From contig DAHXMB010000053.1 of the NCBI GenBank assembly GCA_027365695.1, forward strand, positions 1 to 31,932: 31,932 nucleotides of DNA, given 5' to 3'. This document shows, one piece after another, positions 26,347-28,452 of the stretch. Below the pieces are notes generated by a model. The model was not told where the DNA came from, ran no database searches, and worked only from the letters and a program-made list of their open reading frames with translations. The position numbers were made by a program, and so were the translations under genes. Source of the DNA: Candidatus Acididesulfobacter sp. (GTDB lineage: Bacteria > SZUA-79 > Acidulodesulfobacterales > Acidulodesulfobacteraceae). Each line of letters starts with the position of its first letter. The stretch's first letter is position 1.

Positions 26347-27752
26347 GCCGCTACCTCCTCTTTTTCTTTAGTATCGGTAAAATGAACGCTCGGAAATTCG
26401 ACGTTAACGAACAGTTCCGACGTATCTTTGGTAGTACCCTTGAAAAGCCCGTGGTAAGACGTAAAATAAAACTGCCTCGGCTGCAGTCTTAAAATATCTT
26501 CTTCCCTTACCAGCGGCAGTTCTTCTTCTCTCGTCGATATGCCTCCGCCGACGGATAATATAGGCGAAAACTTTCTTACCGTTCCGAACTGTCCGGATAT
26601 GTAATGGGCGGTATCATAGTCTGGCACTCTCATGAAAAACTTAGAATTCGTATTATCGAGTATGGTTTTAGTATAATCCTCGCCTATTGCCGCATACATC
26701 TGATTGACAGACTGGCAAAAACCGTGAATCCAGACTCCCGCTCCGCCCGCTTTTGCGAACAAATCGTCTATGCCAGGATATAAAGTGCTTTGCGCTTCGT
26801 CTATGTAAATACAAAGCGGCGGATTTAAGACCCTGCCGGACGAAAATACCCTTCCTATAAAACTCTGTATCATGGATATTAAAACCTTGCCGAGAGTGGA
26901 CGCCGCTTTTCTCGTCAAAAGCGATCCCAGATGCGCTATCAAAATAACGGGCTTGCCTTCCTGAAGCCTTTTTATAAACCTGTTTTCGTCCGCCTGTCCT
27001 ATTATTTTTCCGATATTTCCCGACGTAAGTTCGGTTAAGGCGACCCTTAAAGACGACGACACTTTGGAATAATAATCCTGCGGGGAGTCCAATATCTTTT
27101 GCAGGTCCATCGAATATTGATAGGCGTATTCGATATTTCTCTGGGTTAATTTATCGAGTTCCTGAGCTTTTAGTTTTTCGAGTTCCTCTCTTGATATATA
27201 ATTCTTTATTTTTAAAAGATTAAAATCCGGTTCTTTGCCTTGAGAGTGGGCTATTAATTCCAAAGACTGAACTAAAACGAGAGAAATTTCGTAAGCGACG
27301 TTAAAGAAATAAGGCTCTTTGCCGGTTTCGACTCCTGATACTATATGTCCTACTATTTCTTCGGGCATATAGTAAGAGGAAAGCGGATTTATCACAGCCG
27401 AATATTCCGGAAAAATAGGAGTAATAAAAGATATATCGTCAAGCCGTTTCGTCATAGCGGCCGCCTGAATTATTTTATTAAACAGTTCTATATCGCCCTT
27501 AGGGTCTATTATCACTACCGAATATCCCTTTTTTATGTCCTGCTCTATCATATTTTCCATGACGCGGGTCTTACCGACCCTATTCGTGCCGAAACACCAG
27601 AACTGCCCCTTCCTCGCCGAGTCCGGCAGGACGATATTCGTTAGTTTTTTTTCTTTAGCCTGCAAATCAATCCCGACGCCTATCACCGTTTCCGGATTAT
27701 TATTAGCTTTATTGTTCTTTTGAAAAAAGAGTTTACCTAACTTTTTTAACAT
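26343..27752 (-). CDS. traD: TraD-like type IV coupling protein lacking TM domain
   Basis: Walker A GTNRVGKT, IIDPKGD, IYIDEA, KAGGAG, TILDNTNSKFFMRV; GAGGAG RBS. Confidence 0.9.
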   Translation of the reverse strand: MLKKLGKLFFQKNNKANNNPETVIGVGIDLQAKEKKLTNIVLPDSARKGQFWCFGTNRVGKTRVMENMIEQDIKKGYSVVIIDPKGDIELFNKIIQAAAMTKRLDDISFITPIFPEYSAVINPLSSYYMPEEIVGHIVSGVETGKEPYFFNVAYEISLVLVQSLELIAHSQGKEPDFNLLKIKNYISREELEKLKAQELDKLTQRNIEYAYQYSMDLQKILDSPQDYYSKVSSSLRVALTELTSGNIGKIIGQADENRFIKRLQEGKPVILIAHLGSLLTRKAASTLGKVLISMIQSFIGRVFSSGRVLNPPLCIYIDEAQSTLYPGIDDLFAKAGGAGVWIHGFCQSVNQMYAAIGEDYTKTILDNTNSKFFMRVPDYDTAHYISGQFGTVRKFSPILSVGGGISTREEELPLVREEDILRLQPRQFYFTSYHGLFKGTTKDTSELFVNVEFPSVHFTDTKEKEEVAA

Positions 27753-28452
27753 AAATTTTTTCTCCTCTTAAAAGTTCCCTTGCGTAATCTATGGTTTTTT
27801 GCGGAATGTTTAATTCGGTTTTAAGTTTAGTTATAACTCCTGGCAAACGCATAATCGTTTTAATGCCGACTATTTTTATTTCGTTTTCTATAATGCGCGC
27901 CGGCAAATTAAGACTCGTTCTCGACAATATAAACTTTAAGTTGCCGCCGGCTATCCTTTCGATATTTACTACGATAAAGGCAAGATAGTCTCCGCCTTTA
28001 TACGCATTTCTTTCGGGAGTCGGTTGAAGCGAATAAGGATAAAACCAATTTGAAGCCGCAGGAATATTGAAAAGATGATTTCTGTCTATTTCTACCTTAT
28101 AACCTACGTCGGTATTTGACGTTAGGTTTCCGAATACCAAAGAGCCTTTGAGATGCTTGAAATTGTTATAGAGCGAGCGGTATTTAGCCAAGTTCAGATA
28201 ATAATGAAACAGTTTTGAAATTTTTTTGATTTTGCCTTCGTCTTCCGCGGTTAAATCTATTTTTTTAAAATCGAATAACCTATAAGCCGTCATATATATA
28301 TTTCCGTCCTTTTTATCCGTCAATACGGTTGCGCTTCCAAGATAACTCCGGACGGCGTTATTTATGCAACCTAAGACATCTTGGGCGTTTATACCGTATT
28401 TTTCGCATAAGTCATCTATATATTCTTCCGATACCTGCGTTAGGTTCTCCAC
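27733..28452 (-). CDS. Truncated NusA-like protein (NTD, S1, partial KH)
   Basis: YNNFKHLKGSLVFG, QPTPERNAYKGGDYLAFIVVNI, FILSRT, RELLRGEKI align by eye with NusA S1/KH1. Confidence 0.65.
   Translation of the reverse strand: MENLTQVSEEYIDDLCEKYGINAQDVLGCINNAVRSYLGSATVLTDKKDGNIYMTAYRLFDFKKIDLTAEDEGKIKKISKLFHYYLNLAKYRSLYNNFKHLKGSLVFGNLTSNTDVGYKVEIDRNHLFNIPAASNWFYPYSLQPTPERNAYKGGDYLAFIVVNIERIAGGNLKFILSRTSLNLPARIIENEIKIVGIKTIMRLPGVITKLKTELNIPQKTIDYARELLRGEKIYVKKVR

Follow-up and report, generated by a model that had tools for sequence, protein, structure and literature searches.

Specialised paralogs of NusG, such as RfaH, UpxY, LoaP and plasmid-borne copies, are a well-studied route to operon-specific transcription rules. 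RfaH activates the tra operon of F, and NusG paralogs encoded within the tra operons of other plasmids are proposed antiterminators (PMC7593976). NusA is the second elongation factor that is universal in bacteria, and in the literature searched no NusA equivalent of these specialised paralogs was found described. In the N-terminal domain (NTD) of E. coli NusA, helices 1 and 2 and the long last helix form a cavity for the flap-tip helix of RNA polymerase (RNAP; Guo et al. 2018, PMC5842316). Pause enhancement requires the NTD and needs no other part of NusA (PMC5842316, PMC4357713), and residues R104 and K111 of NusA are essential for it (PMC4357713). E. coli and B. subtilis constructs that are truncated to the NTD keep both RNAP binding and pause enhancement (PMC5842316, PMC4357713).

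The window analysed here, a 31,932-nt stretch of a Candidatus Acididesulfobacter sp. contig, encodes a 239-aa protein, hereinafter designated mini-NusA. As judged by its profile matches and predicted fold, it is a conserved mobile-element derivative of NusA that keeps a domain of the RNAP-docking type and has discarded most of the RNA-binding apparatus. Mini-NusA has the same NTD-S1-KH1 order and fold as bacterial NusA (Planctomyces limnophilus 4mtn, E. coli 6flq/5lm7 and M. tuberculosis 2asb) and shares with it the LSRT, RxPG and GE.I motifs, with about 12-24% identity in structural alignments. Unlike NusA, it has no KH2, no acidic repeats and no KH1 GXXG cleft, and its gene resides on mobile elements in a host that also has a normal nusA. 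The NTD-only constructs are laboratory fragments of the housekeeping protein, whereas the mini-NusA family occurs naturally, diverged long ago, and has an S1 domain and a remodelled KH1.

NusG-type paralogs (RfaH on the F tra operon and the plasmid copies) are likewise paralogs of a general elongation factor tied to conjugation (PMC7593976), and the genes of both mini-NusA and the plasmid NusG paralogs lie within transfer operons. However, mini-NusA belongs to the NusA and not the NusG family, and no recruitment element of the ops type was found. NusG paralogs bind the RNAP clamp and gate loop, while the predicted site of mini-NusA is the RNA exit channel and the flap tip.

Sequence, fold and family of mini-NusA

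All features described below are on the reverse strand. The mini-NusA coding sequence (27733..28452; GTG start, stop codon at 27733-27735) was defined by the list of open reading frames together with NusA homology and fold. A ribosome-binding site, AAGGA (28463..28467), is located 10 nt upstream of the GTG. This arrangement is common to the homologous loci L001 and L058, and the GTG start is conserved in both.

The original prediction held that the protein is an element-encoded NusA paralog. Profile searches, an AF2 model and fold searches agree with it, and indicate that the 239-aa protein is a true, very diverged NusA homologue consisting of an NTD, an S1 domain and a degenerate KH1 domain. 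The NCBIfam NusA model TIGR01953 matches mini-NusA with an E-value of 2.3e-7 and 30.2 bits, short of the curated cut-off of 253.4 bits, and matches 25 of 30 family members (best E-value, 3.7e-17). A profile of the mini-NusA family, searched against the PDB, aligns positions 7-237 with residues 12-249 of NusA 4mtn (E-value, 1.2e-13), and hhalign pairs mini-NusA with host NusA with a probability of 96.3% (E-value, 1.6e-9). Host NusA is a separate 431-aa protein encoded on contig C56, which scores 373 bits against TIGR01953. Because the host keeps a normal NusA, mini-NusA is probably a specialised extra copy.

The AF2 model of mini-NusA has a pLDDT of 91.3. Foldseek ranked NusA first, and the best 21 matches listed are all NusA-containing entries, with E-values down to 7e-14. 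VIA comparisons with NusA gave Z-scores of 10-14.8, and those in which residues 2-239 of the model superimpose on residues 1-277 of E. coli NusA gave 10-12.8. NusA accounts for every sequence and fold match, and none is to NusG/Spt5 (NGN and KOW).

The NTD of mini-NusA (residues 1-103; 28144..28452) was delimited by alignment with the NusA NTD using HMMER, hhalign and VIA. In the AF2 model it contains three helices (residues 9-19, 23-38 and 72-101) and strands within residues 41-58. The NusA NTD helices 1, 2 and the long final one are all retained, and the match is collinear across the three domains. The NTD is 103 aa long, compared with ~135 aa in host NusA (~30 shorter), and is near neutral, whereas the host NTD is acidic, with a net charge of −13. 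It is the least conserved part of the mini-NusA family, with Y19 as the sole near-invariant residue. The residues equivalent to NusA R104 and K111 differ by aligner, namely K74 and K80 by MAFFT, K77 and Y84 by HMMER, and other positions by hhalign. Basic residues are common near the helix start, whereas the second of the two positions is not conserved across the family.

The S1 domain (OB-fold; residues 104-179; 27916..28143) was assigned from conserved residues and structural alignment, and carries the LSRT motif at its end. G108 and R178 are invariant, and P139, E147, G154, F159 and S177 are near-invariant. M. tuberculosis NusA S1-KH1 superimposes on the model with a Z-score of 13.7 and an rmsd of 2.1 Å over 136 residues (VIA).

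The degenerate KH1 domain (residues 180-239; 27736..27915) keeps the RxPG and GE.I motifs and has a charge of +7, but is without one helix and the GXXG loop. Its model consists only of helices 183-192 and 218-227 and strands 198-203, 207-212 and 232-237. Specifically, a single helix connects strands 207-212 and 232-237, and the helix-GXXG-helix cleft is absent. Compared with 4mtn, the GXXG region has lost 9 and 3 residues in two deletions, with x-I-P-x in place of GXXG. The C-terminus of mini-NusA aligns with residue 277 of E. coli NusA, where KH1 ends, and KH2 is therefore missing. A truncated KH region had been proposed from the sequence, along with the motifs ILSRT and RELLRGEKI. Both motifs are present and correspond to the LSRT at the end of NusA S1 and the GEkI at the end of KH1. 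The protein does end early, though the truncation is better described as a stop at the end of KH1 combined with the loss of one helix and the GXXG loop from KH1 itself. The mini-NusA family is basic, with a pI of about 9-10, whereas NusA is acidic, with a pI of 5.4; most of the basic charge is carried by the KH1 remnant (+5 to +15 across family members).

By sequence, mini-NusA founds a small, basic and unannotated family that is distinct from host NusA. Profile searches of 5.8 billion proteins retrieved, beyond the family, only genuine NusA relatives; family members score at least 126 bits and NusA proteins at most 63 bits. No longer or fused form of mini-NusA was found, as the search for such forms gave only long genuine NusA proteins. 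Pfam and PHROGs contain no meaningful family for mini-NusA, and no NusA paralog family of this type was found described in the literature searched, consistent with the original remark that no such regulator was known to be characterised. There was no match by tblastn among 72,556 plasmids and no relative in a scan of viral contigs, and a scan of genome contigs with the single mini-NusA protein retrieved one close locus only. Mini-NusA is under purifying selection, with dN/dS of 0.16-0.26 against its homologues.

The mini-NusA operon and its promoter

The 3’ end of the mini-NusA gene overlaps the start of a coupling-protein gene by 20 nt (27733..27752), as originally noted from the open reading frames. 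The coupling-protein gene (26343..27752) encodes a 469-aa TraD-like type IV coupling protein (Pfam TraG-D_C, TrwB_AAD_bind and T4SS-DNA_transf; NCBIfam SXT_TraD, E-value 1.4e-45), which begins directly at the ATPase domain. The third gene (24910..26346) encodes a 478-aa HD-domain protein with weak HD and Cas3-HD matches, which is a candidate nuclease or relaxase.

The mini-NusA gene is directly 5’ of a TraD-like coupling-protein gene at all 11 loci with readable downstream DNA, which encode relatives with 25-88% protein identity. The two genes mostly overlap, and the junction in relatives is either an overlap or a gap of a few to ~30 nt. Wherever the sequence of a locus extends far enough, an HD-protein gene follows the coupling-protein gene (L001, L019, L020, L025 and L056-L058). 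The mini-NusA gene is the first or second gene of an operon for lytic transglycosylase (SLT), mini-NusA, coupling protein and HD protein at 11 of 11 loci. In more distant elements it lies between the SLT gene, which precedes and overlaps it, and the coupling-protein gene, and we therefore rejected the generalisation that mini-NusA is always first in its operon.

In the clade of this window, the gene is first behind a conserved terminator-plus-promoter cassette. The promoter is sigma-70-like (28487..28516; TTGACA, 18 nt, AATAAT; 11 of 12 matches) and is kept in L001 and L058. A conserved 24-nt box (28473..28496) spans the −10 region and part of the short leader and occurs twice in the window, against an expectation of 0. 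The second copy (24870..24913, with the 24-nt box at 24870-24893) heads the operon that begins with SLT and a tRNA and runs to topoisomerase III, and no further copy of the pattern was found elsewhere in the assembled 2.04-Mb genome. The box is also present 5’ of SLT in L001 and L019. The initial view of mini-NusA as the first gene behind the duplicated box is therefore correct for this locus.

An intrinsic terminator (28527..28581), composed of a 20-bp stem (28535-28581) and a U8 tract (28527-28534), is located ~10 nt before the −35 element. The hairpin has a folding energy of −32.3 kcal/mol (z, −5.76). L001 and L058 have a hairpin in the same place, with different stem sequences and a shared GGGGC-T8 end. 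The hairpin closes the helicase operon that comes before, and so does not act within the traD operon. It is the terminator named in the original prediction (28528-28581), and is upstream of the mini-NusA promoter and outside the mini-NusA operon.

No nut- or ops-like site was found in the mini-NusA leader, which is ~28 nt long and also holds the ribosome-binding site, and the sequences preceding the genes of distant family members showed no shared motif. Between 24000 and 31932 there is no excess of internal terminators, with 9 terminator-like sites where shuffled sequences gave an expectation of 9.1.

RNA polymerase as the possible target

By analogy with plasmid NusG paralogs, our preferred reading, which we hold only tentatively and at somewhat less than an even chance, is that mini-NusA is an element-encoded RNAP-binding modulator of elongation or termination, in line with the original proposal of a NusA-based antitermination or termination regulator of transfer genes. 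Specifically, the NTD would take the place of NusA at the RNA exit channel of RNAP, and the basic S1/KH1 surface would contact nascent RNA. Mini-NusA would thereby alter hairpin-dependent pausing and termination on long AT-rich transfer operons or, alternatively, host-NusA-dependent silencing of these operons. We infer that mini-NusA would bind RNAP and compete with host NusA, with an effect in the direction of either anti-pausing and antitermination or enhanced termination. If RNAP binding is true, mini-NusA would be a “dominant” NusA variant that arose naturally, could serve to dissect how NusA functions, and would represent a new way for a conjugative element to escape host pausing, termination or silencing.

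The retained NTD argues for RNAP binding, as we know of no other role for a NusA-type NTD. Because the NTD alone suffices for pause enhancement, a protein with NTD, S1 and KH1 could still act on RNAP. The first-gene position behind a conserved strong promoter that is insulated by a conserved terminator also argues for this reading, as do the purifying selection, the normal NusA of the host and the occurrence of paralogs beyond coupling-protein loci. Same-phylum paralogs head type I restriction-modification arrays, and the flanking sequence retrieved for them contains no homologue of the coupling protein, indicating that this type of protein is not tied to the coupling protein.

The target of a NusA NTD exists in the genus: the RpoB flap tip of a same-genus relative is TPEEKLLRAIFGEKAREVKD, with the hydrophobic core LLRAIFG (cf. 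E. coli L901, L902, I905 and F906). The rpoB gene is absent from the MAG assembly of the window, which is 60.6% complete. Complex predictions for the mini-NusA NTD (residues 1-104) and a 95-aa beta-flap fragment of the same-genus RpoB, run without controls, scored 0.20 and 0.18, with the mark at 0.32, and weigh neither way on binding. Because the flap-tip helix is nearly universal, the short mini-NusA can be tested with RNAP of model bacteria.

Several features argue against action on RNAP. The NTD is weakly conserved, shorter and non-acidic, R104 and K111 are not consistently kept, and the whole protein is basic. There is neither an excess of internal terminators nor a nut- or ops-like leader. 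In a sister type of element that has the coupling-protein and HD-protein genes, mini-NusA is absent and an unrelated protein occupies its slot. The linkage to coupling-protein and HD-protein genes at 11 of 11 loci is at least as suggestive of DNA processing as of RNAP. Together with the basic charge and the loss of the GXXG loop, this linkage suits an accessory role in DNA processing about equally well.

Possible roles in DNA transfer

As the main alternative, mini-NusA may instead be a relaxosome or coupling-protein adaptor that re-uses the NusA scaffold and functions like TrwA of R388 or MobI of SXT/IncC, although we consider this rather unlikely. At the transfer origin, single-stranded or hairpin DNA would be held by S1 together with the basic remnant of KH1, and the NTD would dock on the coupling ATPase, which lacks a transmembrane segment, on the HD-domain nuclease, or on both. 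The trwABC order of R388 (accessory protein, coupling protein, relaxase) is like the order at the present loci, where mini-NusA directly precedes the coupling protein and the HD gene comes next wherever sequence extends. Mini-NusA further resembles TrwA and MobI (SXT/IncA/C) in its position near coupling-protein and candidate nuclease genes, in its basic charge and in having paralogs on small islands. Some of these paralogs are on integrase/RepB islands beside long intergenic regions, resembling mobilizable islands that carry only an adaptor and oriT. The variability of the NTD is as expected of a partner-specific surface, and the charge concentrated in the KH1 remnant is consistent with DNA binding.

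However, TrwA is a ribbon-helix-helix protein, unlike mini-NusA, and we know of no relaxosome accessory protein with a NusA fold, which counts against such an adaptor. HD-domain (MOBH) relaxases do need a separate oriT-binding adaptor, MobI, but this adaptor, by its published description, forms helical dimers with small, three-stranded sheets and so appears unrelated in fold to mini-NusA (PMC13635750). The 478-aa HD protein is not recognised as a MOBH relaxase, and the sister module of coupling protein and HD protein is without mini-NusA. All genes in these operons, including the transglycosylase gene, overlap their neighbours, so overlap alone is no argument for a complex. A large conserved hairpin is directly upstream of the mini-NusA promoter, as an origin-binding role would favour, yet a hairpin followed by U8 and abutting a promoter is the layout of a plain terminator. 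Finally, an adaptor role leaves the retention of all three NusA NTD helices unexplained.

It is likewise rather unlikely that the NusA scaffold has turned into a core part of an undescribed DNA-transfer module, in which it would recruit or evict RNAP at the transfer origin or serve as the adaptor that recognises the origin. The proposed module would comprise mini-NusA, the coupling ATPase, which has no membrane anchor, and an HD nuclease that is anchored in the membrane. With a role in DNA processing, if true, the NusA fold would for the first time have been re-used outside transcription, and a new transfer module with an HD-type nuclease would become better defined; either role at the transfer origin would be new for a NusA-fold protein.

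A protein that bridges the two processes, binding RNAP through its NTD and also the transfer machinery or the transferred strand, is improbable. Such a factor would couple the opening or nicking of strands to transcription across the origin, or would clear RNAP from transferred DNA. It combines the evidence for RNAP binding with that for an adaptor, and the element encodes RNase H, topoisomerase III and an SNF2 helicase, managers of nucleic-acid conflicts; yet it is purely inferential, is without known precedent and requires two putative interactions.

Least probable is that mini-NusA contacts neither RNAP nor the transfer machinery and instead serves the operon mRNA as a translational coupler or an RNA chaperone of the S1 type. 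The intact S1 domain, the basic surface, the very short leaders and the overlapping genes dependent on translational coupling would suit this role, but the conservation of the NusA NTD and of the KH1 scaffold is left unexplained and the S1 domain of mini-NusA is closer to NusA's own S1 than to other S1 proteins.

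Identity and fold of mini-NusA

The window, the entire contig C164 of a 2.04-Mb MAG (60.6% complete), is an F/SXT-like conjugative element. Its transfer genes encode TrbI/TraB, TraV, TraC, F-type TrbI, a TraF-type signal peptidase, TraU and TraN; further genes encode an integrase, RNase H, topoisomerase III, an SLT lytic transglycosylase, an SNF2 helicase, and a methylase with a Bpu10I-type endonuclease. Mini-NusA, the 239-aa NusA paralog of this element, is an extra copy beside the host's normal NusA, which is encoded on contig C56 of the same genome (373 bits; cut-off 253). 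A second mini-NusA-like gene is present on contig C194.

The mini-NusA ORF (27733-28452, minus strand) has 239 codons and a GTG start, with a ribosome-binding site, AAGGA, 10 nt upstream. Both this start codon and the ribosome-binding site are retained in homologues from other samples, and pairwise comparison with three homologues gives a dN/dS of 0.16-0.26; together these mark the frame as a real gene that evolves under purifying selection. Its final 20 nt are shared with the start of the next gene, consistent with the overlap with traD noted originally.

Pfam contains no match to mini-NusA. The NCBIfam NusA model TIGR01953 matches residues 72-211 (E 2.3e-7) and individually recognizes 25 of 30 family members (best E 3.7e-17). 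When a profile of these 30 members is compared with solved structures, NusA ranks first (best 4mtn, E 1.2e-13, positions 7-237 against residues 12-249), and E. coli NusA structures match at about 1e-4. Alignment of the family with the host's own 431-aa NusA by hhalign gives a probability of 96.3% and an E of 1.6e-9 over 224 columns. AlphaFold2 yields a confident model (pLDDT 91.3, pTM 0.83), and the top 21 Foldseek matches listed from the PDB are all NusA-containing entries (E down to 7e-14). VIA-align superposes model residues 2-239 on E. coli NusA 1-277, with Z of 10-14.8; the S1-KH1 part fits M. tuberculosis NusA with Z of 13.7 and rmsd of 2.1 Å (136 residues). Mini-NusA is thus robustly NusA-like, as the original prediction of NusA-like N-terminal and S1 segments proposed.

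Specifically, the model retains N-terminal domain (NTD) helices 9-19, 23-38 and 72-101 with a small sheet, the S1 barrel, the S1-KH1 junction and the KH1 core motifs (LSRT, RxPG, GE.I). The four invariant family residues, G108, R178, R202 and E231, all lie in S1 or KH1. KH1 lacks its first helix and its GXXG loop (deletions of 9 and 3 residues), and a near-invariant Pro replaces the loop. KH2 is entirely absent, as are any C-terminal repeats. The predicted truncated KH therefore holds in spirit, but the protein stops at the end of KH1, which has no canonical RNA-binding cleft. The NTD is ~30 residues shorter than that of host NusA and has lost the net charge of -13 found there. The family is basic throughout, with pI of 9-9.9 versus 5.4 for host NusA and a charge of +5 to +15 on the KH1 remnant.

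Among 1.84 billion representatives, exhaustive searching with HMMER recovers 23 clusters with E no higher than 1e-3, almost all of ~240 aa. Against 5.8 billion proteins, family members score at least 126 bits and are followed solely by genuine NusA at no more than 63 bits; a search for longer or fused forms found none. Searches of 72,556 plasmid records and of viral contigs found no relative, and the element is rare in the host's small phylum (among 38 genomes). Mini-NusA is a NusA-derived family specific to mobile elements. Neither Pfam nor NCBIfam offers a dedicated model for it, and its members are without exception annotated "hypothetical". Full-text literature searches returned no conjugation-associated NusA paralog and no "NusA-like" protein in a conjugation context.

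Operon context and transcription signals

The gene downstream of and overlapping mini-NusA encodes a 469-aa TraD-like coupling protein (NCBIfam SXT_TraD, E 1.4e-45), and the next encodes a 478-aa protein whose match to HD/Cas3-HD is weak. Downstream DNA is readable in 11 related loci (L001, L019, L020, L022, L023, L025, L027, L029 and L056-L058), whose mini-NusA proteins share 25-88% identity with the query. A homologue of the coupling protein directly follows in 11/11 loci, usually with overlapping stop and start, and the HD protein is next wherever sequence goes on. The predicted position as first gene of the operon is limited to the window's clade, because in more distant loci an SLT gene immediately precedes and overlaps mini-NusA.

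In the sister type of coupling protein-HD module, the slot before the coupling protein holds an unrelated acidic, HD-GYP-like protein. This protein (L052:1925-2902, plus strand; L053:2235-3143, minus strand; same phylum) has ~300 aa; its N-terminal half is very acidic, and its C-terminal half resembles HD-GYP. A conserved polytopic membrane protein is encoded ahead of it, as is a DUF1286 protein.

In close relatives the coupling protein is longer, 616/611 aa versus 469 aa in the window. A 148-aa insertion (L001:10863-11345, plus strand; also in the coupling-protein genes of L019 and L055), sited immediately behind the GK of the Walker A loop, opens with A-Q-S-I-D-S-L-I-H-T-P-D-G and closes with H-N, followed by Thr. 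It has the hallmarks of a putative mini-intein in the P-loop. The window's coupling protein lacks the insertion, and the flanks are 97% identical.

A 20-bp hairpin (28535-28581, minus strand; dG -32.3 kcal/mol, z -5.76) and the eight U behind it form a terminator (28527-28581), and a promoter, TTGACA-18-AATAAT, lies ~10 nt beyond on the same strand. The hairpin terminates the upstream SNF2-helicase operon; because it lies outside the mini-NusA operon, the suggestion that 28528-28581 is a regulated terminator is weakened. L001 and L058 show the same order of terminator, promoter box and GTG. The hairpins of the window, L001:9890-9930 and L058 (about 2245-2295) share a C-rich stem start and a GGGGC-T8 end, followed by the -35. 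Because the stems differ wholly in sequence while this end is the same, the hairpin is a clear case of a conserved structural element, with structure kept through sequence turnover.

A second copy of the promoter box (24870-24913) precedes the SLT-tRNA-topoisomerase operon; the conserved block just after the mini-NusA promoter recurs there with one mismatch. Pattern search of the assembled genome (60.6%-complete MAG) found no further copy. The mini-NusA leader is only ~28 nt, ribosome-binding site included. No nut- or ops-like site was found around the gene and leader, and no excess of internal terminators was found.

Three further features accompany these signals. A tRNA-Met (CAU) gene (24234-24310, minus strand) lies within the SLT-topoisomerase operon, just 3' of the second promoter box. 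An acidic 112-aa protein without family match is encoded immediately before the terminator (28591-28929, minus strand) and has a homologue in the sister element type (L053:5130-5492, 133 bits). At L057:250-470, ahead of a mini-NusA gene with 60% identity, a GC-rich hairpin, CCCCTGCCTTTAGGCA[T/G]GGGG, takes the place of the promoter box and is present twice, the copies being about 90 nt apart.

Possible roles of mini-NusA

We tentatively read mini-NusA as an element-borne RNAP factor, a reading that falls a little short of probable. Most economically, each retained domain would do its NusA job. In NusA, the hydrophobic face of the flap-tip helix enters a cavity of NTD helices 1, 2 and 4 (PMC5842316), and the NTD alone is enough for pause enhancement (PMC5842316; PMC4357713). 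The mini-NusA NTD would likewise dock on the flap-tip helix of RNAP, while the basic S1/KH1 surface would line the route of emerging RNA. Such a copy could compete with host NusA, and on the long, AT-rich operons of the element this would readjust pausing, termination or silencing. Near-invariance of the flap tip (same-genus RpoB, TPEEKLLRAIFGEKAREVKD) might let it function in whichever host it enters. NusG paralogs borne on plasmids within tra operons (PMC7593976) provide a documented analogy. Counting against an RNAP factor, conservation is lowest in the NTD, the essential R104/K111 pair of NusA maps inconsistently onto mini-NusA, the charge is reversed relative to NusA, and linkage to DNA-processing genes is the tightest regularity in the data.

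The main rival, a TrwA/MobI-like relaxosome or coupling-protein adaptor, is rather unlikely but draws support from MOBH-type HD relaxases, which require an adaptor of such a kind (PMC13635750). Should its role lie in DNA transfer, mini-NusA could realistically turn out to be more unusual. A bridging role is improbable, and a purely post-transcriptional one still more so.

Further diverged relatives of mini-NusA occur in genomes related to the host. A 223-252-aa type (80-100% mutual identity, ~22% to mini-NusA) occurs at L042:3124-3795 (minus strand; G000, contig C194), L040:4615-5373 (plus strand; G007, contig C170) and L041:6740-7498 (minus strand; G024, contig C164). It stands at the head of type I restriction-modification arrays (HsdR, HsdM-S, HsdS, AIPR). 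These lie on small islands that also carry integrase or RepB-primase genes, and the intergenic regions upstream are long. Therefore, the protein type is not bound to a coupling protein; the islands could equally be mobilizable elements with just an adaptor and a transfer origin.

A 264-280-aa type (L033:1067-1888 and L039:3-677, minus strand; L034:1662-2483, L035:5983-6777 and L036:1714-2556, plus strand) keeps the NusA-like NTD and S1, with 33-37% identity to the restriction-linked type, and has an unrelated, Lys-rich C-terminus. In genome G023, a mini-NusA homologue (L010; contig C27, 45548-46237) is spread over three frames with an in-frame TAG, and this copy is broken and apparently decaying.
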